Source of the DNA: Eledone cirrhosa
Lineage: Eukaryota
Length of the DNA stretch: 64,000 bases
NCBI GenBank assembly: GCA_964016885.1
Contig: OZ024743.1
Location: 13,702,001 to 13,766,000, forward strand
Direction: 5' to 3'
In this document: positions 3,182-63,117 of the stretch, one piece after another
How the letters are laid out: the number at the start of each line of letters is the position of its first letter
Numbering within the stretch: the first letter of the stretch is position 1
The notes under the pieces: model-generated
What the model was told of the DNA's origin: nothing
What the model saw: the letters and a program-made list of their open reading frames with translations, nothing else
Databases searched by the model: none
Made by a program: the position numbers and the translations under genes

Positions 3182-3184
<3 letters not shown>
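1..3184 (+). mobile_element. Tx1-clade (L1 superfamily) non-LTR retrotransposon, family A; 5' part lies outside the window
   Basis: APE C-terminal motifs (SYLDRFF, YSDHK), PGYWKLN, RT motifs (KSPGLDGLP, FRPITLLN, LDQSKAFDRVDH, IRQGCPLS, AYADD), C-terminal CPRC..HAIVHC zinc finger, 3' UTR with AATAAA at 3173-3178 followed by (TATC)n. Confidence 0.93.
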
Positions 3185-3267
<83 letters not shown>

Positions 3268-3290
3268 ATATATATCCATCTATCTATCTA
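3182..3290. repeat. (TATC)n/(GATA)n microsatellite at the Tx1-A 3' end
   Basis: Direct reading. Confidence 0.97.
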
Positions 3291-17560: not shown

Positions 17561-19046
17561 CAGGCAGGCATTTCGTACACCTCTTAAACGATATTATTAT
17601 TGGAATTCAGATAAATGTATTGACACTGATTTAGTGAAATATTTACACTTATATGTTGGTGAGAAATCGAAACAAATGTCTAGTGCCTATTTGGTGTCAA
17701 AGAATCATTTAATAACAACATATATTCCACCATTTCTTCTGAAAAGGTAGACTTCATTCGATGAATAAGTAATTTATTTTATATTTATTTCTCTAACAGA
17801 AAATTTGCTTCCGTTTCTTTGTTAAAAAATATTGCTAGACGATATTTACGGACACCTTCAGTCTACCACTCTGAAAATGAAAAGAATACTGGTCATACGT
17901 TTTTATTTATATTAGTTATCGATATCTGCATTGTTTGTTTATTTTCTACACTAGACGTGAATGTTAAATTTTCAGTCGTCAAATAATATAACGGTACTTA
18001 AATTAACATCTACTGAGATATGTGATGCAATACATGAGATGCATACATACCTAGTTATGTGGATTTATTTTTATTATTTTCCAACGGAGCAAATCAGCTG
18101 TGCTTTTATCTTTTAGCTCGTATCATAAAAGATTCTTGCGAAATGAATGCTCCATTTCGTTTATTTCAGAATTTGCGTTTTATCGTTTGTGTCAAACTAT
18201 GCACTATACATAAAAAGGGTCGTTCAATATACGATTGAGAGAAAGAACTGAACCCTGCTGTACTTGTTTAAAACTTGCTTTTACAGCAGATTTCTTATTT
18301 CAATTTCTTGTAATTATTGAACCCTAATATATTCAGTATATTAGATACACTTAATCAATTTCATATTCGATCTTCTACATCTATCAGAACGCACTGAATG
18401 AATGATAAAACTTGATATAGGCGTTGGTTGAAGCCAAGATCTCCAAGGACTAAATTGAAAAATTATAATGGGTTCATCTTTGATATTCTGCTGCTTCGTT
18501 TATTTACACTACAGTCTATGAATGCAGCACTGATTAAAAATATATACCGTCTGTAAGAATAATTTATTTGCCCAATAAACATGTGCGAATGACAATACGC
18601 TGAGCATTGAACATTTTGAAAATAGAATTAGAAGCTTTCACCTCATATTGACTACACAACATAGTCTAGTATTAGGTCATATAAACACCGGTAAATGAGG
18701 AAAGTGGAAGTCTAGGGAATTGCGTTAATATATCCGGGCTATTCTGGAGTCCGGCTGAAGCTACGAAGAACTTCATACACTGGCGGTAATTAAAATGGTA
18801 CTACTAATTTGTAATCATATCACTGGCTGGTATAATAATTGAATTTTTCAGTTATAAATGTTCGGCAATTTCATGATACAGGATTTTCCGAAAAAGAATT
18901 TAAATTCCATAGCCTCCGTGTTTCAGATCTCTACAATTATTTACCTAGATACTAGTATTCAATTAGCCATATAGAAATTAGAATTATAAATGACGCTAGG
19001 ATATCAGAATTATTATTATTATTATTATTATTATTGTTATTGTTAT

Positions 19047-20293
19047 TCCTTGAATCTCAGTCATTGATGTTGGTTAACTGGAAAGTCCGTTGGATTGAAT
19101 ATCAAGCCACTACCTGCAGCCTCAGATATTCAGGACGTATCGGAGGGTTCTTGCCGTTCCAAGCAAGCATGCCTTTTGAAGCGTTCCAAAAAGCGTGAAG
19201 GGGCCGATTTTCTTTAACCATCCCTGGAAACCTTTGGAGATAGTTCCCAGTGCGCCTATGACAATCGGGATCACTTTGACTTCATGGCAGTTCCAAATCC
19301 TTTTCACCTCCCACTTTAGGTCCTGGTATCGGTTAATTTTCTCCCTCTCCTTCTCTTGCACTCTCGTGTCGAACGGGCAGGCCGCATCCACAATCAGGCA
19401 CGATCTTTTTTCTTTGTCCACAACCACCAGGTCAGGTCTATTGTGTTCCAGTTTTTTGTCCGTCTGTATCCTAAAATCCCACAGCACCTTCACCTGACTG
19501 TTCTCCATCACCGCCTCTGGCCTATGCTCATACCATTTCTCAGAATGTGGTAGTTTGTTTACTTTGCACAGGTGCCAGTGGATCACCCTGCCCATCACAT
19601 CGTGTCTCCAGCCCTTATAGTGGGTCTGGGCTAGGTGTTTACACTCGGACACAATGTGAGCCACAGTCTCCTCTCTCTCTCCACAGATCCTGCACAGTGG
19701 GCTAGCCTCCTCCTTGTAGATATGGTGCTTCAACCACTTCGTTTTGAGGGCCTGCTCCTGCGCAGCCATTAGCATTCCTTCTGTAGCCTTTTTGAGGTCT
19801 CCTCTTCTCAACCAGTTCCATGTCTGTGGATCTCTAAATTCAGTTTTCTCAAAGAAGGTACTATGAAGGGATTTTCCCTTAAGGCTGCTCTTCCTCCTTG
19901 ATGTTATTTCCTCCTTGGGTATCCCCTGGCCTACTGTCCCCTCCTTCAGTACAGCTCTGAGCATTGGCTCCTTACTATAGGTCACGTATTTGTATAGGTT
20001 GTTTTTCTCCATCTGAACACAGTCCTCTATGCTGATAAGACCTCTTCCACCCTCAGATCTCCTTAGGTAGAGTCTATCGACATCACTCCTCTTGTGGAAC
20101 ATGTTGTAGATAGTCAATAGCTTCCTAGTCTTCCTATCCATTTCTTTTTGTTCAGCAACATTCCATCTCAGAATTCCCGCACTGTACCTAATAATAGACA
20201 CAGCTCGGGAATTTACTGCGCTTATGGCATTTCTGCTGTTCAGATGTGACTTCAATACGCTCCTTACTCTCCGAATGTATTCAGTTCTTAACA

Positions 20294-20294
<1 letters not shown>
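19047..20294 (-). mobile_element. R4/Dong-like RLE retrotransposon D1, 5'-truncated, open 390 aa C-terminal ORF (19122-20294)
   Basis: CRIC..ETVAHIVSEC knuckle, RHD, RPDLVVVD..IVDAACPFD..KINRYQDL endonuclease motifs; (TTA)n on both sides. Confidence 0.93.
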
Positions 20295-20327
<33 letters not shown>

Positions 20328-20328
<1 letters not shown>

Positions 20329-21116
20329 GGGCCAGGGCCTATGGACAACTTCCAGAAATCTCTGGCCTGGCAGTGCTACCGAGGAGCCTTGCCAGTTCGG
20401 GATAATCTCTACAGGCATGGAGGTGCCGTCAGCCGGGCATGTCCGAGATGCGCGCAGGGCGACGAAACCGTCCTGCACGCACTCGTCCAGTGTCCGAAAA
20501 TTGCTGACTTGTGGGTTTATGTCGAACACCTGCTGTCGCGTTTAGGACGGATCCAGCTATCATCTGAGTCTATCGTGAGGATTGCCCCGCCCTCCTCCTT
20601 TAGCCGGGAAGGGCAGGCAGTTTTTATCTGTCTGGTGGCCATGGCGAAAGAGATAGTATGGTGGACACGTTTGAAAGGGCTGAAGACGAGCACTTACCTC
20701 TTCGGTGATGCTCTGATTGACTTTTTCAAATTTCATTTGAAAAGGAAAATCAGAGTAGAGAAGGAAGTGCTCTCTTCCCAGCATTTTGTTGAAAGATGGG
20801 TGAGAGAAGCAAGAATGGCCCGAGTGAATGGGCCGACTCTGAGTATATATCTGTAAACTAAAGGTGGAAAACTGGGAGAGGGCACTTGCCTTGGTGGTCA
20901 GGGTCATTGTGGCTTTTTACTGGGCTTTCTCCACAAATGTCCCTCCGAAGTCTCCCCCCTATTGGGGAATTTTTCATTGTTATTTTCATTGTTATTTTTG
21001 TTACATCCTCTGTTTTTGTTTTTTTACACGCAGAAATGCCCATTTGTACCGTCCTGCATTGTCCTGCACTGTCCTTAATGTCTACTTTATGTAAACCCTT
21101 GTGGTTAATAAAGAAA

Positions 21117-21118
<2 letters not shown>
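20328..21118 (+). mobile_element. Tx1 family B copy T1, 5'-truncated
   Basis: GPGPMDNFQKSLAW..CPRC..HALVQC C-terminus, 3' UTR ending ccttgtggttaataaagaaatc; (TTA)n on both sides. Confidence 0.93.
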
Positions 21119-21171
<53 letters not shown>

Positions 21172-21180
21172 CATTGTTAT

Positions 21181-21822
21181 TCCTTGAATCTCAGTCATTG
21201 ATGTTGGTTAACTGGAAAGTCCGTTGGTTTGAATATCAAGCCACTACCTGCAGCCTCAGATATTCAGGACGTATCGGAGGGTTCTTGCTGTTCCAAGCAA
21301 GCATGCCTTTTGAAGCGTTCCAAAAAGCGTGAAGGGGCCGATTTTCTTTAACCATCCCTGGAAACTTTTGGAGATAGTCCCCAGTGCGCCTATGACAATC
21401 GGGATCACTTTGACTTCATGGCAGTTCCAAATCCTTTTCACCTCCCACTTTAGGTCCTGGTATCGGTTAATTTTCTCCCTCTCCTTCTCTTGCACTCTCG
21501 TGTCGAACGGGCAGGCCACATCCACAATCAGACACGATCTTTTTTCTTTGTCCACAACCACCATGTCAGGTCTATTGTGTTCCAGTTTTTTGTCCGTCTG
21601 TATCCTAAAATCCCACAGCACCTTCACCTGATTGTTCTCCATCACCGCCTCTGGCCTATGCTCATACCATTTCTCAGAATGTGGTAGATTGTTTACTTTG
21701 CACAGGTGCCAGTGGATCACCCTGCCCATCACATCGTGTCTCCAGCCCTTATAGTGGGTCTGGGCTAGGTGTTTACACTCGGACACAATGTGAGCCACAG
21801 TCTCCTCTCTCTCTCCACAGAT
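21181..21822 (-). mobile_element. Dong-like copy D2, 5'-truncated
   Basis: Near-identical to the D1 3' end; 3' end in (TAA)n, 5' junction followed by (TTC)n then (TTA)n. Confidence 0.93.
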
Positions 21823-21917
21823 TCTTCTTCTTCTTCTTCTTCTTCTTCTTCTTCTTCTTCTTCTTCTTCTTCTTCTTCTTCTTCTTCTTCTTCTTCTACT
21901 TCTTCTTCTTCTTCTCC

Positions 21918-21958
<41 letters not shown>

Positions 21959-22166
21959 GGCAACCTACGTAGTAAATCGTATCATCGTCAGCTCCGCAAA
22001 GGTTTGTTATTTCCGTTTGTTAAAAATTGTCATTTATGGAAAATTTTATTGTTAACTGTTTATAAGCGCACATACATTGTTTTCCGAAAAGGACACCCAA
22101 AAAGATTGGGGCCTTGTGCCCAAAATTTAAACTTTTATTATTATCAAAAAAATTTCTTTGAAAAAA

Positions 22167-24136
22167 ATGGCTAATTCACCTCTGCACGAAGCAGCTGAAA
22201 GCCTTCCTCACAAAATAACACCTCACACCGACACCACCATTGTAAATGTTACTACGTTTGCCAACACAAAAGAAAATATAAGCACTAGCAATATTTTATA
22301 TTTGTCTCAGGCAGACATTCATTTCCCGCCATTACCAATGACTGCAGGTGTTAAAGCCTCCACCACCACCACCACCGCGACAACCACCACCACCACCACC
22401 ACCGCGACAACCACCACCACCACCACCACCACCGCGACAACCACCACCACCACCACCACCGCGACAACAGAAACAAAAGAAGAAAAAAATAAATTAACTC
22501 GTGATGTCGAAATGAAATCAAGCAAAATGGACTCTTCCCCACCAAAGACGACTGACGTCACCACCACCACAACTGAAACTAAAATTAATATTAACAATAG
22601 CAACAACAACAACAATGACATTATAAAACCCCCCCTCAGTTTCGCCAGAGTAGCAAAACAGTTCGAAGCATTTACGGTAACTCAGGAGGATTAAGAAAAT
22701 GCCAAACAAATGGTAAAGAAAGATGGGTACAGGGTCAGCCTCCCCCCCCCACCTAATAAAATGGAGCATCGGCGCCTATGCACCGTGTCGTATAGAACAA
22801 TAAATGTAAAATCGCGCCGAGTGGAACGGGCATCCGAGTCCCAAATCCAAAAAGCTTTGGGACATGTGTGGGCAAGAAAAACCCACATCAGACGTGGGCA
22901 AAAGTATGGAACCGTGGACGTGTTCTTTGAAACACCAGAGAGGCTAGAGAACACTCCATGGCCCCATTAAGAAGTGACGACTTCACACTCGTCCCAAGCT
23001 ATTGTGGCCAAAGACTCATAAAGATCAGGGTGACCCACGTTCCACCGGCCATCGAAATTCCCTGGCTAATAGCGGCTGTCGTCGCCGGCATCGAAGCCAA
23101 CACGAAAATAATAGCAATAGCAAAAGAAAAGCAGGAGAACTGGTCCGGATCTGGGATGGAGCTCCTGATCCAAGCGGACCAAAAAAGCATTGAGAAGATC
23201 CCAGAGGTAATAGACCTCACTGACGGCAGCCACCTCACGGTAATTGTCGAGAGCAGAAGACCTAGGTGTGTCGTTTGTGGTGAAGGAACCCACCTAAGGG
23301 CTTTCTGCCCTGAGGCTAAAAGGTTGAGGCCACCTCTCCTACCCACCCCAGTGACACAACCATCAACACCACCAGTAGCAGAGATGGCAGCAACAAGTGT
23401 AGCAGCAACAACAGATGCAACTATAACAGCAACAACCCCAGCAACAGTAGCAAAACCAACACCACCACCACCACCAGCAAAACCAACACCACCACCACCC
23501 AACGCTTCAGAACTAGCACCAGCGCCTACACCATCCACCACGCCACAACCAAAACTAACGGCTGTGGAGGATTTTCCACTCCCCGGCCTATCACAACTGG
23601 AGAAGATTGTGACGACGAGGAGTGGGAAACGATATCCGGAAAAAAAAAGAAACCAAAAAAGAAAAAATTCTCTTCCTTCCCCCTCCAAAAACAAAATACA
23701 GAGGGAAACAAATAAATTAAGAAACAAAAAAGTTAGGACAGATATGCCACCATCCACACCAGCATCACCAACCCCATCAACCCAAACACCAACACCATCA
23801 CCATCATTAACCCCAACACCACCATCACCTACACCACAAAAGTCACCAAAAGGCGAAACAGAAACAAACCCACAACAAACGCAAACAAAACAAAACAACC
23901 AAAACGATACAGACTACACAGCATTAAATTTGAACAACAAGCAATTATTACACTACATCCAACACAACACCAGCATCACAGAAAAAGACTACACAACAAC
24001 CCCAAAATTCACACCAACTCCACACATACAAATCACTCGCATCACACAGAAAACGTACATGACACTAAAACAAAAATTCCCCAAAGACATCGGAGACTTC
24101 CGACAAGCACTCTCCAGGAGGATTTATAAGCAGTGA
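22167..24136 (+). pseudogene. T2 ORF1 (gag-like, CCHC zinc knuckle); nonsense codon at 22692 and frameshift near 22950
   Basis: CVVCGEGTHLRAFC = CX2CX4HX4C; Thr/Pro-rich low-complexity flanks; three consecutive ORF pieces. Confidence 0.85.
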
Positions 24137-24213
24137 AAAGGATGGAAAAACCGTCCTTCCCCTACGAGAAGTAAGGTAAGTGGTCTTTCCCATCTTTTCC
24201 ACGCCTTCTCAAC

Positions 24214-27200
24214 ATGACCTCACTCAGAATAGGCAGCATAAATGCGCGTGGCTTGGGGTCGTCATGGAAGCAGGGCCACCTGCTCAACGACCTCAGGTCA
24301 CTAAACATAGATGTAGTGGCCATCAGCGAGACCAGAATCTCCGAAGCACAGGCTTTCGCACCGATCTTCGGCGGCTACGATGTGTACGCATCTCCCAGCC
24401 GTCCGGGATAAGGGGAGGAGTTGCTGTGCTTTTTCGGAGAGTTTTGGATCTTGCCATACGGGCCATCTTCCTGGACCCAGAAGGTAAGTTGGTGGTGCTG
24501 GACGTGACCAGCGGAGACGGGCAAGCTTTCAGGTTAGTGGCCGTCTATGCCCCGACAGGAGAAGGGCGGCCTGATTTCTTCCGGAGTCTGGAGACCTTTC
24601 TTGGAACGTCCCGCTCTTTAGTGTTAGTGGGCGACTGGAACGGGATCTTAGATGCACGCTGGGATTGTGTGGGATTAGTGGATAGGGAAGGAGGGTGCAA
24701 GAGTCTCACCAACCTGCTCAGACGTTTTGAACTGTCTGACAGGTACCGAATGGATTTCCCGAATGTACCAATGTGGACTTGGACAAATCGCATAGGGTCA
24801 TCCAGATCATATCTAGATAGAGTATTTTGTAGGGAAATAGATAGGTCTAGCATAGGCTGTCCTCAATTCAAGATAGTCAGCTACACGGACCACAAATTCG
24901 TGATCTGTGTGCTTGACTTAGATAGGCTTCATAGGCGAGGACCCGGCTACTGGAAGCTAAACGCGTCCTTACCAGCGCGCAAGGCCTACAGAGACCGGAT
25001 TAGCAAACTAGTTAAGCGGGCGTTGACGGGGGCCATCGTCAACAACAAGTGGTGGTTTGCTCTGAAAAGAGCAATTAGAATAGAGTCCATTAGGTTTAGT
25101 AAGACTTTAGCAATAGAGAAAAATAGAGCAGAGGGAGAACTAGTTAGAAAATTAGATGAGGCGCTTAGCAAAGGCATCGCGACCGACGTACTTGCGGCGA
25201 AATTGGCCCTTGACCAATTCTTCAATGCAAAGCACGAAGGCTGCGTTATCAGAGCAAGGGTGCGTGCTCTCAGACACGAGGGGACGAAAGTCGTTCAATG
25301 GGCCCGAGTGGCGGAGGCGCGTCGTGGCAACAAAGCCACGATCCGGTCTTTGGTGGACCACAACGGGCGCATGCTACTCGATCCCGGGCAAATGTGTGAA
25401 GCTTTTCAGCGACACTTCGCTCGACTGTTCGGGGGCAGTGGCGGGCCGGTTCGAGGGATGGACTTTAGTGTCTACCTCGACGGACTGCCGCGGCTTTCGG
25501 CCACTGAGGCGTAGTGTTGCGAAAAGCCGATAACAACCGCTGAAGTACGGGATGCAATGACTAGTTGCACAAGGGGTAAATCGCCTGGTTTGGATGGTCT
25601 GCCCTATGAAATTTACGTACAAATGCCAAACTTGTTCGGAGGCCTCTTGGCGGACGTCTACTGCAACTGGCAACAGAACGGGAGAATTCCCAGCTCTGTG
25701 AGCCGAGGAGCGGAGGCGCTGCTGAGAAAGGATCCGAACAAGGGGGATAACATAGATAATTTTAGGCCCATAACTCTGCTAAACACAGAGTTCAAGATTT
25801 TGGCCAAGGGGCTAGCAAAGAGGTTGGCGCTTGTCGTTGGTGGTCTGGTGGGAGAGGCACAGACATGCGCCATTCCCGACAGATCCATCCACGGCAACCT
25901 CCACCTCATGCGATACATCGTAGAGAGGGTAGCTAGGGAACCTGGCACGGGTGGGTCTTTGATCAATTTAGATCAGTCGAAAGCCTTCGATAGGGTCGAC
26001 CATCGTAACCTAGCGGCAGTCCTGAGGGCGGCTGGCTTTGGGCCCGTCTTCAGAGGCTGGATCGCTGCCATGCACAGCGACATCTGCTCTGTAGTGAGAG
26101 TGAACGGTCACCTTTCGGATCCGTTCAACATCATGCGCTCGGTCCGCCAAGGATGTCCCCTCTCGTCCCTATTGTACGTATTGACTGTCGAGCCATTACT
26201 GCACAAACTGGAGACGTTGAGGGGGGTCCCGCGCGAACTAGAATGCGGAAGATCCGTGTCAGCATATGCCGACGATGTCACCGTAGTGGTGTCGAACGCC
26301 AAACACATCGAGGCGATCGGCACTACACTAAGAGAATACGAAGCGGTGACAGGAGCAATGATCAACCAGGAAAAGTCAGTGGGCCTGCAGCTCGGCACCT
26401 GGAGAGGCAGGTCCATGCCGTCCAACAGCGTCGTCGGGCGCTGGACGGGTGGACCGGTTAAATTGCTAGGGGTCTGGTTCGGTCCAGACCTCCAGACGGA
26501 CAAAAACTGGGACGAGGTGACGAGCAGGGTGGCTTCTCTCACCCAGAAATGGGCCGAGAGGAAGCTATCCCTGAAAGGTCGAGCGGAGGTGGCGAATGCG
26601 TACATCGCATTCGTCATCTACTACCGCCTGACCGTCGTACCTTGTCCTAAGCCCCGCCTGACTGCGCTGGAGCGTTTGCTCTTTCGCTTCTTGTGGAAGG
26701 GACGCGTTCCGATGGTCAGGCGGTCCATCTGCTGTCAACACCCGCTACGTGGAGGGCTGGGCATGCCGTGGCTGATGATGCGCAGACACGCGCTCAGGCT
26801 ACGACATCTCCACCTCTTCCTCGACGGTGATCAGGTGTGGTCGCCGTTTGCTAGACACGTATTTCCCCAGCTCGTTTCCTTGACGGAGCTGCAGTCCTGG
26901 GTCAAGCGAAGACCGAGCGGGAGCGCTTGGAGACTGGAATGTCTTCAGGCGCTCACAGCCCTCGACCAATCAGGCAATGTGATCGGTGGAAACTCCACCT
27001 TGGCGCTCTATAGGGGATTAGTGGAGGGGAAGAGCGACGACGTACTTGGAGAAACTCTAGGCGTCGACGAAAATCAACTCGCCAATCTCTTCGGAAGGAC
27101 TTTCGGGCCGGGGCCTATGGACAACTTCCAGAAATCCCTGGCCTGGCAGTGCTACCGGGGTGCTTTGCCAGTTCGGGATAAACTTTACAGGCATGGAGGT

Positions 27201-27632
27201 GCCATCAGCCGGGCATGTCCGAGATGCGCACAGGGCGACGAAACCGTCCTGCACGCACTCGTCCAGTGTCCGAGCATTGCTGACTTGTGGATTTATGTCG
27301 AACACCTGCTGTCACGTGTAGGACGGATCCAGCTATCAGCTGAGTCCATCGTGAGGATTGCCCCGCCCTCCACCTTTAGCCGGGAAGGGCAGGCAGTTTT
27401 TATCTGTCTGGTGGCCATGGCGAAAGAGATAGTATGGTGGACACGTTTGAAAAGGCTGAAGACGAGCACTTACCTCTTCGGTGATGCCCTGATTAACTTT
27501 TTCAAATTTCATCTGAAAAGGAAAATCAGGGTAGAGAGGGAAGTGCACTCTTCCCAGCATTTTGTTGAAAGATGGGTGAGAGAAGCAAGTATGGCCCGAA
27601 TGAATGGGCCTTCTTTGAGTATGTGTCTGTAA
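24214..27632 (+). pseudogene. T2 ORF2 (APE-RT-zinc finger); frameshift near 24400 and TAG at 25512
   Basis: MTSLRIGSINARGL, AISET, VGDWN, SYLDR, TDHK, QGCPLS, AYADD. Confidence 0.93.
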
Positions 27633-27875
27633 ATTAAAGGTGAAAAACTGGGAGAGGGCAGTTGCCCTGGTGGTCAGGGCCACTGTGGTCTTTTAATGGG
27701 CTTTCTCCACAAATGTCCCTCGGAAGTCTCCCCCCTATTGGGGAATTTTTCTTTGTTATTTTATTTCATCCTCTGTTTTTTTTACACGCAGAAATGCCCA
27801 TTTGTACCATCCTGTATTGTCCTGTACTGTCCTTAATGTCTACTTTATGTAAACCCTTGTGGTTAATAAAGAAAA

Positions 27876-27935
<60 letters not shown>

Positions 27936-27937
<2 letters not shown>

Positions 27938-32611: not shown

Positions 32612-32675
<64 letters not shown>

Positions 32676-32677
<2 letters not shown>

Positions 32678-33333
32678 CTTGAATCTCAGTCATTGATGTT
32701 GGTTAACTTGAATATCAAGCCACTACCGACAGCCTCAGATATTCAGGACGTATCGGAGGGTTCTTGCTGTTCCAAGCAAGCATGCCTTTTGAAGCGTTCC
32801 AAAAAGCGTGAAGGGGCCGATTTTCTTTAACCATCCCTGGAAACCTTTGGAGATAGTCCCCAGTGCGCCTATGACAATCGGGATCACTTTGACTTCATGG
32901 CAGTTCCAAATCCTTTTCACCTCCCACTTTAGGTCCTGGTATCGGTTAATTTTCTCCCTCTCCTTCTCTTGCACTCTCGTGTCGAACGGGCAGGCCACAT
33001 CCACAATCAGGCACGATCTTTATTCTTTGTCCACAACCACCAGGTCAGGTCTATTGTGTTCCAGTTTTTTGTCCGTCTGTATCCTAAAATCCCACAGCAC
33101 CTTCACCTGACTGTTCTCCATCACCGCCTCTGGCCTATGCTCATACCATTTCTCAGAATGTGGTAGATTGTTTACTTTGCACAGGTGCCAGTGGATCACC
33201 CTGCCCATCACATCGTGTCTCCAGCCCTTATAGTGGGTCTGGGCTAGGTGTTTACACTCGGACACAATGTGAGCCACAGTCTCCTCTCTCTCTCCACAGA
33301 TCCTGCACAGTGGGCTAGCCTCCTCCTTGCAGA

Positions 33334-33334
<1 letters not shown>
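32676..33334 (-). mobile_element. Dong-like copy D4, 5'-truncated
   Basis: RLE domain with one stop and a short 3' UTR deletion; (TTA)n on both sides. Confidence 0.92.
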
Positions 33335-33409
<75 letters not shown>

Positions 33410-33421
33410 CTTATTATTATT

Positions 33422-35130: not shown

Positions 35131-38100
35131 AATATCAAGCCACTACCTGCAGCCTCAGATATTAAGGACGTATCGGAGGGTTCTTGCTGTTCCAAGCAAG
35201 CATGCCTTTTGAAGCGTTCCAAAAAGCGTGAAGGGGCCGATTTTCTTTAACCATCCCTGGAAACCTTTGGAGATAGTCCCCAGTGCGCCTATGACAATCG
35301 GGATCACTTTGACTTCATGGCAGTTCCAAATCCTTTTCACCTCCCACTTTAGGTCCTGGTATCGGTTAATTTTCTCCCTCTCCTTCTCTTGCACTCTCGT
35401 GTCGAACGGGCAGGCCACATCCACAATCAGGCACGATCTTTTTTCTTTGTCCACAACCACCAGGTCAGGTCTATTGTGTTCCAGTTTTTTGTCCGTCTGT
35501 ATCCTAAAATCCCACAGCACCTTCACCTGACTGTTCTCCATCACCGCCTCTGGCCTATGCTCATACCATTTCTCAGAATGTGGTAGATTGTTTACTTTGC
35601 ACAGGTGCCAGTGGATCACCCTGCCCATCACATCGTGTCTCCAGCCCTTATAGTGGGTCTGGGCTCGGTGTTTACACTCGGACACAATGTGAGCCACAGT
35701 CTCCTCTCTCTCTCCACAGATCCTGCACAGTGGGCTAGCCTCCTCCTTGTAGATATGGTGCTTCAACCACTTCGTTTTGAGGGCCTGCTCCTGCGCAGCC
35801 ATTAGCATTCCTTCTGTAGCCTTTTTGAGGTCTCCTCTTCTCAACCAGTTCCATGTCTGTGGATCTCTAAATTCAGTTTTCTCAAAGAAGGTACTATGAA
35901 GGGATTTTCCCTTAAGGCTGCTCTTCCTCCTTGATGTTATTTCCTCCTTGGATATCCCCTGGCCTACTGTCCCCTCCTTCAGTACAGCTCTGAGCATTGG
36001 CTCCTTACTATAGGTCACGTATTTGTATAGGTTGTTTTTCTCCATCTGAACACAGTCCTCTATGCTGATAAGACCTCTTCCACCCTCAGATCTCCTTAGG
36101 TAGAGTCTATCGACATCACTCCTCTTGTGGAACATGTTGTAGATAGTCAATATCTTCCTAGTCTTCCTATCCATTTCTTTTTGTTCAGCAACATTCCATC
36201 TCAGAATTCCCGCACTGTACCTAATAATAGACACAGCTCGGGAATTTACTGCGCTTATGGCATTTCTGCTGTTCAGATGTGACTTCCTACTGTTAAGATG
36301 TGACTTTAATACGCTCCTTACTCTCCGAAGGTATTTTGTTCTTATCAATTCCTTCATTTTTTGTTCTTGATGTCATCAGCCTCCAGAACGCCCAAATACT
36401 TGTATCCTTCCTCAGAGTCAATTTCCTTTATCATCTCACCTGTTGGTATCTGGATTCCGTTACTTCTGCTCAACTTACTCCCTCCTCATCACAATGACTC
36501 CACACTTACTAATACCAAATTGCATACAAATATCATTGCTGAAAATACGGACAGTGTCAACAAGCACATCCAACTCCTTCTCACTCTTCCCAAAGAGCTT
36601 AAGATCGTCCATGAAGAGGAGGTGATTGATGGTAAGCCCTCCATTTCCCAACCTGTATCCTGTTCTCACTTTTCGCAGTACACTGGTCAGGGGCATCAGG
36701 GCAAGGACAAAGAACAGAGGGGACAGACTATCTCCCTGGAAGAAACCTGTCTTGATCTTCACGCTTCCCAAGGATTCTCCAGTTGATGTTAACTCTGTTT
36801 CACAGGAGTTCATACTTTTGCCCAACAACTGTCTGATGTTATCTTCCACCTTGAAGATCTCCAGGCTTTTGGTGATCCAAGAATGACGCACCATGTCAAA
36901 TGCCTTTTTGTAGTCTATCCATCCCATGGCAAGACCAGTGTGTCTCCTCTTGCAATTCCTCATTATGATCTTATCAATAAGTAACTGGTCCTTTGTACCG
37001 CGTGACTTCTTTCGGCATCCTTTCTGTTCGTCCGGTAACAAGTTATTTGTGTGGAGGTGATGGTAGATTTCCTCAGACATAATGCTTTTCAACAGTTTCC
37101 ACATTACGGACAGACATGTGATAGGTTTATAGTTGGTAACATCATTACTCTTGATTCGCTCTTTCATTATCAGAACTGTGGTACCTTTTGTCAACCACTC
37201 TGGTACCTCACCTTACATAAAGCAGTCATTGAACATGGTTGTCAGTTTCGGGTGGAGGGATGTTATGTTTTTAATCCAATACCCCTGTACACCATCTGAG
37301 CTAGGTGATTCCAGTTGGTTAGTTTTTTGGCCTGCCCCTTAAGTGTTTCAACTGTGATACTCAAATCAGTTTGTTGGTGTGCCTGTTCACTGATCTCTTT
37401 CTTTACTGTCTTAATCCACACTGCCTGGTCATTATGTTTAACATCCTGCTCCCATATTCCTCTCCAGAATGTTTTAGTTTGTTCCGCCTCAGGGATCAAG
37501 TCATTGCCTCTTTCTTTCCCCTCAAGCTGTCCATACTGCATCTTCTGGTTGTTGTCGAACATGCGGTTCTGTTTATACTGACTGACTCTGTTCTTGTATC
37601 GCCTGATTTTTGCACTCTTTGCTACAATGCGTTGCTTCAGTTCCTCTATGATAATATTTAGCTTTTTCCTCCTAGTTTTGTACTTTATTTCCAGTCTATT
37701 TTTAGTGTCTATGTTTTTTAGTGTCCCATTCAGTAGGGACTCAAGCTTTCCAATGTCATTTCTCATTTCCCTGATTTGACCACTCAGTCGTTTCTTCCAC
37801 CAAGGCTCTGCTCTTTCTTGTCTGTTGTTTCCTCTCGCTTTTATACCAAGTAGTTTCCTCACCGTATTTGCTGTTGCTTTGAGGATATTGTTGCACTGGT
37901 GAAGGCTCCTCGCCTCAAGGTATGGGATGACTTTGTTTACCTTAGCTGTTGTTTCTTTTAACTTTTTCCTGTCTACAAATCTTAGGTTCATAGGTCGCCC
38001 TCTATCATTGTTCAATTCATCTACCACTAAGTTTAGGATATCTACCAAATCTTGTCCTAGCCCGTCAGCATTCATCTCCTCAGTGGCCGTATCTCTGTTC

Positions 38101-40180
38101 CAGGTATTATTTATCTCAGCATTCAGATCACTGTCTGCTTCGAGTGGTTCCTCCCTTCTCTCGACCTCTTCATCTTCATTTCCCACTGGCTCGTTTGCAT
38201 GGCATACTCCACCCTCCATCTCCAAGCTAATCTCTCTGCTCAGTTCCTCCAGTTCCAGCTCGCTTACCCACACATTAGTTCTTATTACCCGAGCCTGCCC
38301 GGCCAGTTTTTGTTCATCTAATTTAAATGGACCAATCTCGTTCCAGATGTTATGCATCCTTTTCCTATAGCCTTTCTCCTTGGGGTTACTCTTCAGGTAA
38401 CATTGCATAACAGTTCTATTCAATTCTTTCGTCCAGTTGGTTCTGGTCCCTTTCCTTCTTCTTCTTCCTCCGACACCTGCAGTATTTGGTTGACAGCCAG
38501 GTCCCTGCTGCTGAGCCAGGGAGCACCTGTTGAGTGAGAGTCTGTCACATGACATTCTAGTCTCCATTTCACCGTCATTCGAACTGTTTAGGTTCGACAT
38601 TTAAACACTCTTATCGAGGATTGGCGAATGTATGGTTACATAACCAACGGTGAATTACTTGTCTCCGGTGGTTTCCTCACTCCGCGTGACTTTTGTGTGG
38701 CATTATCACGTTGTAGACGAACCCAAATAAACAAAACAAACAAACAAACAGGCAGAAAATACCCCCAAAATTAATAAGCATAAGTTTCATTGTAATGTAG
38801 TGTTTGAATGTCTGACTTAGTTTTTCCCTTCCATTCTCTGTCCGTCCGTTTGTTTTTCTCTTCATTTTTATTTCCTTTACGTTTTTCGTTGTTGCTGTGC
38901 TGCTTTGATTTTGATTTTTTTTTTATTCTGACCGGGTCATCAATTCAGTCTATTTATATATTTTGATGCCTTCCTCTTTTAGTGAGAATTCTACAATGTA
39001 GCAGGGGCTAGCGGGAGAGAATAGCGGCGGCAGTTACAATGAGGCAGCGGCGGCGGCGGCGGCGATGGCGTTGCTGTGCCAGCAGCAACTAGCAGGAGGT
39101 AGTGGGAGAGAATAGCGGCGGTAGCGATAATGAGGCAGCGGCGGTGGCGATGTTGTCGTATTACTGTAGCGATGGTGTTGAAGATGGAGTAGAAATTTGA
39201 GTCGACTTGACCAGTTTTCATCGTGGCACTGGTGGTGGCACTGGTGGTGAAATTATCTTTAGGGAAATTATCATTAGTCGCGTATATTTGTTGACATATT
39301 TTCTTATTATTGGAATTAAACATTTTGTTAAAACTAAAACTCAATTTTTATTTTTTTTTTTATTTTGACCGGGTCATCAATTCAGTCTATTTATATATTT
39401 TGATGTTTTCCTCTTTTAATGAGAATTCTACAATGCAGCAGTGGGTAGTGGGAGAGAACAGCGGCGGTAGTGATATTGAGGCAGCGGCGGCGGTGGTGGT
39501 GGCGGTGCTGTGCCAGCAGCAACTAGCAGGAGGTAGTGGGAGAGAGTAGCGGCGGTAGCGATAATGAGGCAGTGGTGGTGGTGATGTGGTCGTATTACTG
39601 TAGTGATGGTGTTGAAGTTGGAGTAGAAATTTGAGGCGACTTGACCAGAGTTTTCATCGTGGTAGTGGTGGTGGTATTGGTAGTGAAATTATTTTTAGTA
39701 AAATTATCGTTAGTCGCCTATATGTGTTGACATATTTTCTTAATATTGGAATTAAACATTTTGATAAAACTAAAACTTGAGGCAATATTAATAGTAATTA
39801 TTATTATTATGCTGAGATTGGTGGTGGTGGTGGCGAAATTGCCGTTATCTGGCTGTTGTGTTTAGTGTACACAGAGGGGTGATGGGGTAGGTGGTGTATC
39901 TAGTTTCTGACGTTGGTGAAATTGCTGTTATTTGGCTGTTCTATATAATGTAGACAGAGGGGGTTTTCTTCCATTTATAACCATTTTCTTTTTTGAATAT
40001 AAAATGTATAATACAAAATTGAATATTTGAACGATATAACAATATATTATGGATTCGAATTTTTTGGGACTCAAGCCGGATGTTTTATGCAACATTTGTA
40101 CTAAGAATTGTTATTTCACAATTGATTTAAATATGTTAAAAAAATCAAAACTTACGGGAGCGATTTCTCGACCTTCTATC
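35131..40180 (-). mobile_element. Dong-like copy D5, near full length with leader; extreme 3' end deleted
   Basis: ORF pieces 37263..38600, 36475..37194 and 35155..36357; leader homologous to the D3 leader. Confidence 0.88.
35155..38600 (-). pseudogene. D5 ORF (Myb-like, RT with FMDD, CCHC, RLE), frameshifted
   Basis: [38 protein letters not shown]. Confidence 0.92.
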
Positions 40181-41334
40181 CACCCGCTACGTGGAGGGCT
40201 GGGCATGCCGTGGCTGATGATGCGCAGGCACGCGCTCAGGCTACGACATCTCCACCTCTTCCTCGACGGTGATCAGGTGTGGTCGCCGTTTGCTAGACGC
40301 GTTTTTCCCCAGCTCGTTTCCTTGACGGAGCTGCAGTCCTGGGTCAAGCGAAGACCGAGAGGGAGCGCCTGGAGACTGGAATGTCTTCAGGCGCTCACAG
40401 CCCTCGACCAATCGGGCAATGTGATCGGTGGAAACTCCACCTCGGCGTTCTATAGAGGATTAGTGGAGGGGAAGAGCGACGACGTACTTGGGGAAACTCT
40501 AGGCGTCGACGAAAATCAACTAGCCAATCTCTTCGGAAGAACTTTCGGGCCGGGGCCTATGGACAACTTCCAGAAATCTCTGGCCTGGCAGTGCTACCGA
40601 GGAGCCTTGCCAATTCGGGATAAACTCTACAGGCATGGAGGTGCCGTCAGCCGGGCATGTCCGAGATGCGCGCAGGGCGACGAAACCGTCCTGCACGCAC
40701 TCGTCCAGTGTCCGAAAATTGCTGACTTGTGGGTTTATGTCGAACACCTGCTGTCGCGTTTAGGACGGATCCAGCTATCATCTGAGTCTATCGTGAGAAT
40801 TGCCCCGCCCTCCTCCTTTAGCCGGGAAGGGCAGGCAGTTTTTATCTGTCTGGTGGCCATGGCGAAAGAGATAGTATGGTGGACACGTTTGAAAGGGCTG
40901 AAGACGAGCACTTACCTCTTCGGTGATGCTCTGATTGACTTTTTCAAATTTCATTTGAAAAGGAAAATCAGAGTAGAGAAGGAAGTGCTCTCTTCCCAGC
41001 ATTTTGTTGAAAGATGGGTGAGAGAAGCAAGAATGGCCCGAGTGAATGGGCCGACTCTGAGTATATATCTGTAAACTAAAGGTGGAAAACTGGGAGAGGG
41101 CACTTGCCTTGGTGGTCAGGGTCATTGTGACTTTTTACTGGGCTTTCTCCACAAATGTCCCTCCGAAGTCTCCCCCCTATTGGGGAATTTTTCATTGTTA
41201 TTTTCATTGTTATTTTTGTTACATCCTCTGTTTTTGTTTTTTTACACGCAGAAATGCCCATTTGTACCGTCCTGCATTGTCCTGCACTGTCCTTAATGTC
41301 TACTTTATGTAAACCCTTGTGGTTAATAAAGAAA

Positions 41335-41336
<2 letters not shown>
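40181..41336 (+). mobile_element. Tx1 family B copy T4, 5'-truncated, almost identical to T1
   Basis: Open C-terminal frame HPLRGGLGMPW..TLSIYL; shares the ttttcattgtta duplication in the 3' UTR with T1. Confidence 0.93.
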
Positions 41337-41402
<66 letters not shown>

Positions 41403-41615
41403 GAATGACATGGTTGACGGCGGCTCTGCTCTGTAAGGTATTGTAAATTTTAACCGCTATAACAATTGTAAATTGTTTAAAACTTTAACCAAATTGTAGA
41501 CAAAAACACCTTGCTCCTCGTGAGAGGGGTCTTTCTGCCCGTTATTTGGCCCTTCGGGGTTAATTAACCGCTTATTGGCGTTTTGTGCCCAATATTTATT
41601 TTAAACCAAAAAAAC

Positions 41616-43586
41616 ATGGCTACAAAAAAGAATTTTCACAAATCACTCCCACTCATTCGGGTCTTCTTCTTCCTCAATCGTCACTACACCAGAGAGAAGA
41701 TTGTCTCTCTCCTCCCCTTCTCTAAATGTGTCTCTCTCCCTCCCTTCTCTTTCGCAAGCGACGCCAGTAAAGAAAAAGAAAAATATAGTTTCTGATAGTT
41801 TCCAAGAGCACGTGCAAAACGTGGAACATTTCTCCACGACGACGACAACGACGATAATTGTGTGTAAATACGGAAACCGATTTCATTCGTCTGACGTCAT
41901 GAATAATAGCAGTAGCAGCCGTAATAACAGCAGCAGCAGCAGCAGCAGCAACAGTGACAAGGAAAACAACAGTAGCAGCAGCAACAGCAGCATAAACAAC
42001 AACAGCATTAGCAGCAACAGCAACAACAACAGCAACAGCGGCGGCGGCAGTCGTAGTACCAGTAGCAACAACAAAAGTAACAGCAGCTCTGACGAAAACA
42101 ACAACAACAACAACAGCAGCAAAGAAAACCCAATCTCGTTTGCAGGTATCGCAGAGAACCTGGAAACCATCCTTATAACAAATGAGGAATTAGAGGAAGC
42201 GAAGAAGATGGTGACGAAAACCGGACACCGAGCAATCTGCAAGGCAGCCGAAAAATATTTCGAAACCAAACAGCACTGTACGGTCACGTACCGTACAGTA
42301 AGCACAAAATCCCGTAGGGTTGAAAGAGCCACAGAGGCTCAAATACAAAAAGCCTTAGGGTCTGTGTGGCAGCGGAAAACGCATATCACCCAAGGCAAGA
42401 AATATGCAACCGTGGAGTGCTTTTTTCCACACACCAGGAGGCAAAGGCTCAATCCCTAGTGACCCTAAGGAGCAAGGAAATGGTGTTGGTGCCCTCCTAC
42501 TGCGGGCAAAAAATTAAAGGGTCAAACTGACCCATGTCCCCTCCGGGATGGTGGTCGCGTCTGTCCTCGTCGGAATCGAGGACAAAACAACTGTACTGCA
42601 AGTACAGCAAAAGTACGAGAAGATTGGGTCGGCACTTCCATTGAGATGTTAATCCAAACCAACCAGGAGTGCATCGAAGCTGCCCATAAGTGTTGAGGGC
42701 ACACGCCCGAAATGCTTTCGCTGTGGATCGAAGACTCACCTCAGGGCCTTCTGCAATGAGAAGACCCTGAGAAAGGAGAAAACCCCCCTCCTTCCGAAAC
42801 CGGCTCCACTGCGTCCAGAAACAGGACAGGCAGCAACCAGGAAGGATAGGTCCGTGGCACCCATACCCACGCCACGGAAATCAAGAACCACAGCAGCAGT
42901 GGAAGTATTAACATTGACAACAGCAATACCAACTGCAGCTGCAACAGAGACTCCACTGCAAACATCACTAACAACAACAAGTGAAAGAGTGGAGCTGCTC
43001 CCCCTCCCCGACCTCACAGAATCGGACATGGGGTGTGAGGTGGGCGAGGGATGGCAAAATGACGCAAGTAGGCACAAACGCAGAGGCAGCGCATCGTCGC
43101 TTTCGAAAAGGGAGGAAAGAAATGAAAAAAAGGGTAAAGGCTATTCCAAAGAGATTTATAGCAGCAACACCACCAACAACATCACCACCTACACTAGCAC
43201 CACCATCACCACCGGCGGCAAACTCACCTCCAACAACAACAACACCTTCAACACCACCACCACAAGCACCAACATCGCAAACACAACAACAAAACCATCA
43301 CACCCAGCAACAACGACAAGAAAATAGCAGAACCACACCCCACCCCCAGAAAAACAAATGCACAGAAATAAATACACACAACAAGAAACTAATGACTTAC
43401 ATAATTGAACACACAGACATTTCACAGCACGACTACATAATACCAGCACCAATCAAAACACCAACGAACATAAGACTGGTAAGAATAGCATAGAAACAAT
43501 ACACAAACACTAAAACGAAATTCCCCAACGCAATTGGTGATTTCAGAGATGTAGGAGGGACACTCAACCGGAGATATATTCGGTAA
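41616..43586 (+). pseudogene. T5 ORF1, multiply frameshifted
   Basis: CTVTYRTVSTKSRRVERATEAQIQKALG homologous to T2 ORF1; CFRCGSKTHLRAFC knuckle near 42713. Confidence 0.8.
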
Positions 43587-43733
43587 TACTTACAGAAGAG
43601 CCGACGACCAGCCGAAGGTACGATTCAACGGTCCCTTCACCAGACGATCAAGTGAAAAGGGATGGATAAACCATCCTTCCTCTGCGAGAAGTAAGGTAAG
43701 TGGTCTTTTCCGTCTTTTCCACTCCATTTCAAC

Positions 43734-46700
43734 ATGACCTCACTCAGAATATGCAGCATAAATGCGCGTGGCTTGGTGTCGTCAAGGAAGCAGGGCCACC
43801 TGCTCAACGACCTCAGGTCACTAAACATAAGTGTAGTCGCCATCAGCGAGACCAGAATCTCCAAAGCACGAGCCTTCGCACCGATCTTGCGCGGCTACGT
43901 GGGTACGCATCTCCCAGACGTCCTGGATCGGGGGGAGGAGTTGCTGTGCTTTTTCGGAGAGGTTTGGATCTCGTCATACGGGCCATCTTCCTGGACCCAG
44001 AAGGTAATTTGGTGGTGCTGGACGTGACCAGCGGAGACGGGCAAGCTTTCAGGCTAGTGGCCGTCTCTGCCCCGACAGGAGCAGGGCGGTCTGATTAACC
44101 GACGTCTGGAGACCTTTCTAGGAACGTCCCACTCTTTAGTGTTAGTGGGCCACTGGAACGGGATCTTAGATGTACGCTGGGACGTGTGGGATTAGCGAAT
44201 AGGGGAGGAGGGTGCAAGAGTCTCTCTCACCAGCCTGCTCAGGAATTTTGAACTGTCTGACAGGTACCAATTGGATTTCCCGAATGTGCCAATGTGGACT
44301 TGGACAAATCGTATCGGGTCATCCAGATCATATCTAGCTAGAGTATTTTGTATGGAAATAGAGAGGTCTAGCATGAGCTGTCCACAATTCAAGATAGTCA
44401 GCTACACGGATCACAAATTCGTGATCTGTGTGCGTGACTAGGATAGGCTTCATAGACGAGGACCCGGCTACTGGAAGCTAAACGCGTCCTTACCAGCGCG
44501 CAAGGCCTACAGAGACCGGATTAGCGAACTAGTTAAGCGAGCGTTGACGGGGGCCATCGTCAACAACCAGTGGTGGGTTGCTCTGAAAAGAGCAATTATA
44601 ATAGAGTCCATTAGGTTTAGTAAGGCTTTACCTATAGAGGAAAATAGAGCAGAGGAAGAATTATCCAGAAAATTAGACGAGACGCTTAGCACAGGCATCA
44701 CGACCGACGTACTTGCGGCGGAATTGGCCCTACCTAATTCTTCAATGCAAAGCACGAAGGCTGCGTTTTCAGAGCAAGGGTGCTTGCTCTCAGACACGAG
44801 GGGACGAAAGCCGTTCAATGGGCCCGAGTGGCGGAGGCGCGTCGTGGCAACAAAGCCACAATCCGGTCTTTGGTGGACCACGACGGGCGCATGCTACTCG
44901 ATCCCGGGCAAATGTGTGAAGCTTTTCAGCGACACTTCACTCAGCTGTTCGGGGGCAGCGGTGGGCCGGGTCGAGGGATGGACTTTAGTGTCTACCTCGA
45001 CGGACTTCCGTGGCTCTCAGCCACTGAGGCGGAGTGTTGCGAAAAGCCGATAACAGCCACTGAAGTACGGGATGCAATGACTGGCTGCACAAGGGGTAAA
45101 TCGCCTGGTTTGGATGGTCTTCCCTATGAACTTTACGTACAGATGCCAGAGTTGTTCGGAGGCCTCTTGGCGGACGTCTACTGCAACTGGCAACAGAACG
45201 GGAGAATTCCCAGTTCTGTGAGCCGAGGAGCGGTGGCACTGCTGAGAAAGGATCCGAACAAGGGGGATAACATAGATAATTTCCGGCCCATAACTCTGCT
45301 AAACACAGAGTTCAAGATTTTGGCCAAGGTGCTAGCAAAGAGGTTGGCGCTTGTCGTTGGTGGTCTGGTGGGAGAGGCGCAGACATGCGCCATTCCCGAC
45401 AGATCCATCCACGACAACCTTCACCTCATGCGATACATCGTAGAGAGGGTAGATAGGGAACCTGGCACGGGTGGGTCCTTGGTCAATTTAGATCAATCGA
45501 AAGCTTTCGATAGGGTCGACCATCGTTACCTAGCGGCAGTCCTGAGGGCGGCTGGCTTTGGGCCCGTCTTCAGAGGCTGGATCGCTGCCATGCACAGCGA
45601 CATCTGCTCTGTGGTGAGAGTGAACGGTCACCTGTCGGAACCGTTCAACATCATGCGCTCGGTCCGCCAAGGAAGTCCCCTCTCGTCCCTCTTGTACGTA
45701 TTGACTCTCGAGCCATTACTGCACAAACTGGAGACGTTGAGGGGCGTCCCGCGCGAACTAGGATGCGGAAGATCCGTGTCAGCATATGCGGACGATGTCA
45801 CCGTAGTGGTGTCGAACGCCAAACACACCGAGGTGATCGGCACTATACTAAGAGAATACGAAGCGGTGACAGGAGCAATGATCAACCAGGAAAAGTCAGT
45901 GGGCCTGCAGCTCGGCACCTGGAGAGACAGGTCCATGCCGTCCAATAGCGTCGTCGGACGCTGGACGGACGGACCGGTTAAATTGCTAGGGGTCTGGTTC
46001 GGTCCGGACCTCCAGACGGACAAAAACTGGGACGAGGTGACGAGCAGGGTGGCTTCTCTCACCCCGAAATGGGCGGAGACGAAGCTATCCCTGAAAGGTC
46101 GAGCGGAAGTGGCTAACGCGTACATCGCGTCTGGCATCTGCTACCGCCTGACCGTCGTACCTTGTCCTAAGCCTCGCCTGACTGCGCTGGAGCGTTTGCT
46201 CTTTCGCTTTTTGTGGAAGGGACGCGCTCCGATGGTCAGGCGGTCTATCTGTTGTCAACAACCGCTACGTGGAGGGCTGGGCATGCCGTGGCTGATGATG
46301 TGCAGGCACGCGCTCAGGCTACGACATCTACACCTCTTCCTCGACGGTGATCAGGTGTGGTCGCCGTTTGCTAGACACGTATTTCCCCAGCTCGTTTCCT
46401 TGACGGAGCTGCAGTCCTGGGTCAAGCGAAGACCGAGAGGGAGCGCCTGGAGACTGGAATGTATTCAGGCGCTCACAGCCCTCGACCAATCGGGCAATGT
46501 GATCGGTGGAAACTCCACCTCGGCGTTCTATAGAGGATTAGTGGAGGGGAAGAGCGACGACGTACTTGGGGAAACTCTAGGTGTCGACGAAAATCAAATA
46601 GCCAATCTCTTCGGAAGAACTTTCGGGCCAGGGCCTATGAACAACTTCCAGAAATCTCTGGCCTGGCAGTGCTACCGAGGAGCCTTGCCAGTTCGGGATA

Positions 46701-47152
46701 AACTCTACAGGCATTGAGGTGCCGTCAACCGGGCATGTCCGAGATGCACGCAGGGCGACGAAACCGTCCTGCCCGCACTCGTCCAGTGTCCGAAAATTGC
46801 TGACTTGTGGCTTTATGTCGAACACCTGCTGTCGCGTGTAGGACGGATCCGGCTATCATCTGAGTCCATCGTGAGGATTGCCCCGCCCTCCACCTTTAGC
46901 CGGGAAGGGCAGGCAGTTTTTATCTGTCTGGTGGCCATGGCGAAAGAGATAGTATGGTGGACACGTTTGAAAGGGCTGAAGACGAGCACTTACCTCTTCG
47001 GTGATGCTCTCATTGACTTTTTCAAATTTCATTTGAAAAGGAAAATCAGAGTAGAGAGGGAAGTGCACTCTTCCCAGCATTTTGTTGAAAGATGGGTGAG
47101 AGAAGCAAGAATGTCCCGAATGAATGGGCCTACTCTGAGTATATATCTGTAA
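43734..47152 (+). pseudogene. T5 ORF2 (APE-RT-zinc finger), several frameshifts and stops
   Basis: MTSLRICSINARGL..AYADD..; colinear with T2 ORF2. Confidence 0.92.
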
Positions 47153-47400
47153 ATTAAAGGTGGAAAACTGGGAGAGGGGACTTGCCTTGGTGGTCAGGGT
47201 CACTGTGGCCTTTTACTGGGCTTTCTCCACAAATGTCCCTCCGAACTCTCCCCCTATTGGGGAATTTTTCATTGTTATTTTTTGTTACATCCTCTGTTTT
47301 TGTTTTTTACACGCAGAAATGCCCATTTGTACCGCCCTGTATTGTCCTGCACTGTCCTTCATGTCTACTTTATGTAAACCCTTGTGGTTAATAAAGAAAC

Positions 47401-47448
<48 letters not shown>

Positions 47449-47451
47449 TAT

Positions 47452-47965
47452 TCGCTGAGAGCGTCGTATGGGTAGAGTCCTAAAATACGTTTTCCTGTGG
47501 GTCCTCTCAGAAGCATCCATTTCAACTGGTCCGGCTTCATGCCCATGTGAGACCAGCCGATCTCCTGGATGTTATCCAACCAATCTCAGACGGGGTCTAC
47601 CAAAAGGCCTCCTGTCGGTTGTGATTGCACACAAAATCTGTCCAGATATTCTTTCCTGACACAATCTAATAACCGTAGTAGTGGTGATTTCACAATTTGG
47701 AGAAGTAGCGGCTCTACCTGGAGCGTAGCTCTGATCTCCGAGATACAAACTCTATCGAGAAATGTTATTTCATAGACCCTTCAGAGGAACTCCACTTCGG
47801 TAGCTTGTATACGGGATCGTATTCCATCGGGCATTACCTAAGATTCATTACAATAGTCAAGGCCTTAATTGAAGTTAGTGAGTTAAGATTTTGCACTGCC
47901 TCCCTGCTTCTGGTTACTGAATGATGATGCATGTGTATTACTGCACCGGCTACTGAAATTCCTGA
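47452..47965 (-). mobile_element. Decayed RTE 3' fragment whose 3' end runs into the (TAA)n tract
   Basis: Minus-strand translation IRSRIQATEVEFL*RV..FLDRV..EIRATLQVEPLLLQI..GRPR..WLDNIQEIGWS. Confidence 0.75.

Positions 47966-58377: not shown

Positions 58378-63117
<4,740 letters not shown>

Follow-up and report, generated by a model that had tools for sequence, protein, structure and literature searches.

How do two unrelated classes of retrotransposon come to share one array in which they consistently face opposite ways? This question is raised by a 64,000-nucleotide stretch of the Eledone cirrhosa genome (C4:13,702,001-13,766,000; genome assembly of 3.0 Gb), referred to below as the window. 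Elements were called by self-BLAST, open reading frames (ORFs) and Pfam matches, and ten were found within positions 19010-47452 (Table 1). They belong to a Dong/R4-type family with a restriction-like endonuclease (RLE), here D, and a Tx1-type family with an apurinic-like endonuclease (APE), here T. As claimed in the original prediction, made from the letters of the window alone, their order is D-T-D-T-D-D-T-D-T-T, with every D on the minus strand and every T on the plus strand. Most probably, D and T inserted here ten times independently, one copy stacked upon another, and likely nick opposite strands of (TTA/TAA)n.

The junctions provide the first evidence. Tracts of (TTA)n of about 33-86 bp occupy 9 of the 11 array junctions, both outer ends counted, which bears out the claim that nearly all junctions are of this kind. 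Three of these nine tracts are head-to-head (5'-to-5'); they separate two 5' ends and therefore cannot be the tail of either element. The copies in the array differ from one another by 1-9% and have distinct ends, and an ORF survey revealed no unbroken ORF2 or D ORF among the window copies.

Identity of the two families

The intact D copy at locus L224 has a single frame of 1141 amino acids with RVT_1 and zf-RVT matches. The reverse transcriptase (RT) of D scored 77 bits against R2 versus 42 bits against L1, and the D C-terminus contains a CCHC motif and a visible PD..D..K motif, with a weak alignment to the R2 RLE (E 0.03-0.07). This single ORF, with an RT followed by CCHC and a PD..D..K restriction-like endonuclease, is the arrangement by which the Dong/R4 type is recognized. 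Known Dong elements (Bombyx Dong, DongAg, snail DongBg and ostracod Dong), which also occur in molluscs, are described as having a single ORF, an RT, a C-terminal RLE and a (TAA)n target (PMC3812793, PMC7998251). They also have an N-terminal Myb-like region, whereas in D the N-terminus gave only a look-alike, the Rap1 Myb domain at 0.86, which we treat as a lead; no Pfam match to Myb was obtained in L224 or in 20 homologs, and no N-terminal zinc finger was seen in D. The D matches listed included no named Dong or R4 protein. Judged by these features, D appears to belong to the Dong/R4 type and to fit the known Dong in all essentials. It differs in sharing its tracts with an APE element, in lying often next to (GAA)n, and in a 5' junction that varies and includes additional bases. 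Separately, we noted that D 5' ends start with GGGAAGAAG and repeatedly adjoin compound tracts of (TTC)n(TTA)n (window 21822-21917; L038, L040, L044, L045, L116, L125 and L129), and that some D copies have a re-copied 5' end (L104, L121 and L127).

The intact T copy at L204 contains frames of 614 and 1152 amino acids with Exo_endo_phos, RVT_1 and zf-RVT matches. As is characteristic of Tx1 elements, T has two ORFs, ORF1 with a CCHC knuckle and ORF2 composed of APE, RT and zinc finger. The APE motifs N, E, GDWN, LDR and SDH/TDH align to Tx1L, and the RT fragment scored 234 bits against Xenopus Tx1L versus 124-126 bits against human L1 ORF2p; on similarity scores, T thus appears nearer to Tx1L than to L1. 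A PDB search with the T APE fragment gave a best match of only E 0.86, and among 140 pattern matches in metagenome contigs none was confirmed as a relative of the T endonuclease. Full-length open frames were counted by hand in about 53 of 150 scored D matches and about 36 of 150 scored T ORF2 matches, and such intact young copies elsewhere in the genome support recent activity of both families.

Two different 5' untranslated region (UTR)/ORF1 modules, GGC... in T2 and GAATG... in T3 and T5, are found upon one ORF2: the ORF2/3' parts of T2 and T5 are about 94% identical, whereas their 5' UTR/ORF1 parts differ. This 5' module exchange is seen on comparing window positions 21959-24131 with 41403-43650, and each type has more than 1,300 first-look candidates.

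A sister Tx1 family at window positions 1-3181 shares 72% DNA identity with T (69% at the protein level in ORF2, 61% in the APE) and served as a control. It ends in (ATCT)n, and its relatives are flanked by ATCT or AT-rich DNA instead of TTA. We also observed that this sister (window 1-3290; L100, 10 kb upstream) forms a co-oriented array of its own with ATCT tracts left of the window, and that some of its relatives lie off-target at AATAT with short duplications.

Target and polarity across the genome

We then compared the flanks of D and T copies throughout the genome. The samples were chosen as the best matches by identity among more than 1,000 candidates and therefore favour young copies. 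As a baseline, 41,912 positions of unselected DNA were sampled, and 176 of them (0.42%) had a (TTA)3 run in the 36 nt before. TTA was found upstream of the T 5' end in 30 of 30 copies of the GAATG type and 30 of 30 of the GGC type (the best 30 each; 4 of the 60 come from the array locus or its second copy, described below). With the slash marking the junction, 59 of the 60 had the 5' register TTATT/G behind an upstream run no shorter than 15 nt, and the 3' register was ACA/TTATTA in 28 of 30. Away from the array locus, all 76 full-length T had TTA at the 5' junction, and intact T selected by their endonuclease protein had it on both sides in 20 of 20 cases. Sequence specificity has been defined as one target in more than 20% of the flanks (PMC4494074); for T, the proportions were 76/76 in full-length and 12/23 in truncated copies.

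For D, TAA lay within 30 nt of the 5' end in 24 of 30 flanks; the other six showed either (GAA)n, a run that was degenerate, or re-copying of the 5' end, and the opposite-strand repeat occurred in none of them. Intact D copies with a head had TAA in 11 of 12 cases (8 of 20 copies were without head), and all 16 complete 3' ends carried it, in agreement with the (TAA)n target of the Dong/R4 type. Among truncated D, 31 of 37 had TAA at the 5' junction, after 14 alignment breaks had been dropped from 51 rows. The 5' junctions of D contain variable extra bases, unlike the exact junctions of T.

The orientation of neighbours was equally consistent. In adjacent pairs at 130 loci outside the array locus, D and T were opposite in 29/29 cases, T-T pairs had the same orientation in 9/9 and D-D pairs in 13/14. 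Forty further 10-kb loci contained both families in 19 cases, opposite in each, so that in both sets pooled D-T neighbours were opposite in 48/48. A genome-wide tabulation of flanks and orientation had been suggested as a check of the original prediction, and the results from these samples support a shared target and a fixed opposite polarity of D and T genome-wide. At 56 T 5' loci, repeat neighbours abutted the tract in all cases, and the tails used as landing sites were of the Tx1 type in 11 and of the GGCCTTGTGC type in 9 (one locus in both). Frequent among the neighbours is a short retroposon ending ...GGCCTTGTGC...(TTA)n (L035, L039, L046, L051, L052, L060, L064, L075, L108 and L144), which runs in the direction of T and against that of D. 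Where its own 5' end is truncated, this end can lie directly against TTA, as would that of a short interspersed element mobilised by a T-like enzyme.

Several observations weigh against a strict reading of these data, beginning with the sampling of best matches described above. Two of the 11 array junctions are tract-free deletions, namely T3 to D5 at 35121/2, where the 3' ends of both elements are clipped, and D5 to T4 at 40180/1, which has CACC microhomology. T occurs on both strands at one locus (L221), and an inverted D pair without tract was found at another (L139). Furthermore, among 68 T 3'-end loci, of which 42 ran off the locus and 3 had internal breaks, 23 truncated copies could be scored, and the 5' junction had a tract in 12 and none in 11. 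Full-length T had it in 80/80 (Fisher p 7e-9), the two sets differing in age and ascertainment. The predicted sharing of one target in opposite orientations was thus confirmed for flanks and polarity, but not its strictness. Age, ascertainment or an RNA-borne 5' tract could cause the gap between full-length and truncated copies. In several off-target T, the 3' end bears TTAT(T/C) and little more of a tail, and a short stretch of the target is duplicated (L288 and L254); at L003 a 16-bp target duplication repeats an interrupted tract on both sides. From the near-absent tails and target duplications of such copies it follows that T RNA probably ends in about ...CAUUA and that the tracts mainly pre-existed; they were mostly reused and split by T, not made by it. 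The preference of T for TTA is strong but leaky, and not a requirement.

A different account of the T junctions, which we regard as rather unlikely, is that the T nickase is loose and AT-rich in preference, like that of L1, and that targeting is only apparent, arising from annealing of a UUA 3' RNA end and possibly from TTA repeats that full-length transcripts carry at their 5' end. This would explain the exact full-length 5' junction with its minimum upstream run beside the tract-free truncated junctions, the location of off-target T at TTAT(T/C/A), and the presence of different repeats after almost the same 3' terminus in the sister families. Polarity does not discriminate, since a loose nickase predicts the same. 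However, the tract at 12 of the 23 truncated 5' junctions is not derivable from the RNA 5' end (baseline 0.4%), and a minimum upstream run has a target-side precedent in SART1, at 12 bp (PMC7265360). In addition, 20 full-length T loci with both ends (12 picked for short 5' tracts; 4 without 3' tail in range, and L291 without a clean tail) showed no target duplication beyond the tract, and a 5' tract carried by the RNA is not supported by them.

Nicking of opposite strands by D and T would operate as follows. In target-primed reverse transcription (TPRT), the RNA tail pairs with a complementary primer strand. The nick would fall on the (AAT)n strand for T, with an RNA ending ...AAGAAA(T/A)CAUUA as template, and on the (TTA)n strand for D, with an RNA ending ...CAAGGAAUAA(C/U) as template; with the AAT strand as primer for T and the TTA strand as primer for D, opposite polarity would result. 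Each insertion would split the tract, T duplicating about 7-16 bp, and leave two targets that slippage may re-lengthen, and tails of other retroposons are also used as landing sites. Fixed polarity would then produce a stack of direct repeats from which blocks may be lost via recombination and deletion. We infer the nick positions, the choice of target by the endonuclease and the order of events, the observations being the flanks, register, polarity, target duplications, filled and empty sites, and ORFs intact elsewhere.

Gain and loss of elements in the array

An inverted second array of about 58 kb is located 0.9 Mb away, at C4:14.58-14.67 Mb. The polarity of D and T is the same throughout, the right flank is common to both arrays, the left half is different, and the shared elements differ by about 0.3-0.5%. 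Inside the tract between T2 and D3, the second array has one T more, which is full-length and in which both ORF1 and ORF2 are intact. It is without T4 and has at that place a complete D5 5' end and an 80-bp (TTA) tract; T4 is therefore a recent insertion, which joined via CACC and removed about 17 bp and the upstream tract. The second array is also without D4-T3, and its D5 has the 16-bp deletion of D4 and one more D4 allele, which suggests that D4-T3 was lost by recombination between D4 and D5. When T1 was compared, as a candidate ortholog, with the full-length T occupying the corresponding position in the second array, the differences were all private. The array has thus also been shaped by deletion or recombination. 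The comparison with an empty site that the original prediction called for was possible within this same assembly, and whole elements were present or absent at tracts. These filled and empty pairs agree with its claim that insertions leave tracts on both sides and so allow growth, although growth is accompanied by loss of blocks and proceeds mostly on reused tracts.

The homology extends beyond the arrays. It was mirrored at 50, 100 and 200 kb and gone at 300 kb, corresponding to an inverted duplication of 200-300 kb that is 97-99.9% identical (C4:14.40-14.67 Mb versus window 21,100 onward) and has its outer edge inside the array; the left flank of the window is single-copy. This inverted copy may have arisen by duplication, may reflect heterozygosity for an inversion, or may be a haplotype that was retained. 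Contigs of one sample contained both right-flank versions with alleles in phase, and 9 of 9 variants listed for run X2 matched the second copy; both versions therefore exist as DNA. The depth of the right flank was about twice that of the left in X1, and equal or lower in X2 and X3 (three runs, one sample). Near-identical pairs of insertion loci 0.2-0.6 Mb apart on the same chromosome were also noted (L025/L026, L042/L043 and L210/L211); the assembly seems to have many local duplications or haplotypes that were retained.

We consider it improbable that part of the array was created during assembly, by chimeric joining of two haplotypes or two loci within repeats. Such an origin would fit the inverted copy, which is about 99.5% identical and differs in its left half, and the single-copy depth that 2 of 3 runs gave for the duplicated flank, but the divergence and distinct ends of the copies within the array, the in-phase window or second-copy alleles in sample contigs and the recurrence of the D/T pattern at more than 100 other loci argue against it. 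Passive accumulation, in which both families would insert broadly and persist where repeat-rich DNA is neutral, with the tracts as their tails, is scarcely credible: D and T do each terminate in the repeat as read on the element's sense strand, and many neighbours are other retroposons, but it is largely refuted by head-to-head tracts that are no element's tail, exact register, invariant D-T polarity and the neighbours abutting the tract at all 56 T 5' loci.

More tentatively, and with somewhat less than even confidence, we propose that a Tx1 lineage switched its APE to the complementary strand of Dong's target. This would have given rise to a genome-wide system of two families, both recently active, in which arrays of strict polarity differ between near-identical copies by whole elements gained or lost and may seed large rearrangements like the 200-300 kb inverted duplication.

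Table 1. Elements and tracts of the array (window positions)
Positions	Strand	Feature	Remarks
19010-19047		(TTA)n tract with GTT variants	D1 3' tail; leftward DNA single-copy
19048-20294	-	D1, 5'-truncated Dong/R4-type	CCHC + RLE end; ATT common to truncation point and tract
20295-20327		(TTA)11 tract, head-to-head	Joins two truncated 5' ends
20328-21119	+	T1, 5'-truncated Tx1-type	Young subfamily
21120-21181		TTA tract, tail-to-tail	
21182-21821	-	D2, 5'-truncated	0 differences/640 bp to second-array copy
21822-21958		Compound (TTC)33(TTA)13 tract, head-to-head	
21959-27877	+	T2, full-length Tx1-type	5' type GGC...; ORF1 with CCHC knuckle; APE-RT-zf ORF2 broken
27878-27936		TTA tract	Empty site; extra intact full-length T in second array
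27937-32611	-	D3, full-length Dong/R4-type	Broken ORF
32612-32676		TTA tract	D3 5' end to D4 3' end
32677-33335	-	D4, 5'-truncated	16-bp deletion near 3' end, also on second-array D5
33336-33421		TTA tract, head-to-head	
33422-35121	+	T3, older Tx1-type	5' type GAATG; internal deletion; clipped 3' end; not in second array
35122-40180	-	D5, near full-length	Clipped at both ends; 435-bp tandem duplication in 5' UTR
40181-41337	+	T4, young 5'-truncated Tx1-type	Window only; CACC microhomology to D5
41338-41402		TTA tract	T4 to T5
41403-47402	+	T5, full-length Tx1-type	5' type GAATG; broken ORFs
47403-47452		Terminal TTA tract	Right flank common to second array

Precedents and neighbouring features

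Each ingredient of the D/T system has a precedent, the D/T pattern occurs commonly in this genome, and the locus is an example, not a unique structure. Dong is known to target (TAA)n. Kibi on (TC)n, Koshi on (TTC)n and crocodilian Tx1 on (TTCC)n/(TTTC)n are Tx1-clade APE elements described as inserting into microsatellites (PMC4494074); T differs from these in its target, (TTA)n, which it shares with an RLE element, and in having a sister in this genome that goes to (ATCT)n. In Bombyx, TRAS and SART are reported to enter one tandem repeat in opposite directions (PMC7265360), and endonuclease swaps decide their target (PMC1919474, PMC7265360). However, TRAS and SART alike are APE elements of the R1 clade and occupy telomeric TTAGG, whereas the enzymes of D and T are unrelated and their target is a dispersed microsatellite.

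The original prediction had regarded a cross-class pair on one target as undescribed, which does not stand: Keno (APE) and Utopia (RLE) are described at one site in U2 small nuclear RNA genes (PMC4640811). The targets of this pair and of R1/R2 (28S ribosomal DNA) are RNA genes, whereas that of D and T is a microsatellite. Keno and Utopia are given the same 3' flank, and so face the same way, unlike D and T, which are opposite and whose target is kept on both insertion sides. Its other claim of novelty remains in place: the literature searched contained no TTA-targeting Tx1, with Repbase, which could list a TTA/ATT-type Tx1, outside the search. For cephalopods, families of both Dong-R4 and L1-Tx1 are listed in two papers on repeats; one of them (PMC13282606) counts the recently active ones, and the word "target" is absent from its main text.

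These data add (TTA)n to the targets of the Tx1 clade and represent a convergence of APE and RLE elements on a microsatellite with opposite polarity. The availability of intact D and T copies and of the close ATCT sister makes the choice between endonuclease and tail annealing directly testable. If a Tx1 lineage did switch its APE as proposed above, the TTA/ATCT sister pair, whose APEs share 61% identity, would offer a natural domain-swap experiment on the evolution of APE specificity. Clusters of long interspersed elements in this repeat-rich genome may be built by targeting and recombination, which bears on hotspot maps of transposable elements and on the assembly of such regions.

Outside the array, an 889-bp inverted repeat (98.6%) within window positions 58409-62895 surrounds broken ORFs at 59434-61791, which we take to be Penelope-like by their look; the longest ORF there had no Pfam match. 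A degenerate RT fragment unrelated to the array (RVT_1, E 6.5e-4) lies on the minus strand at 13850-14863.

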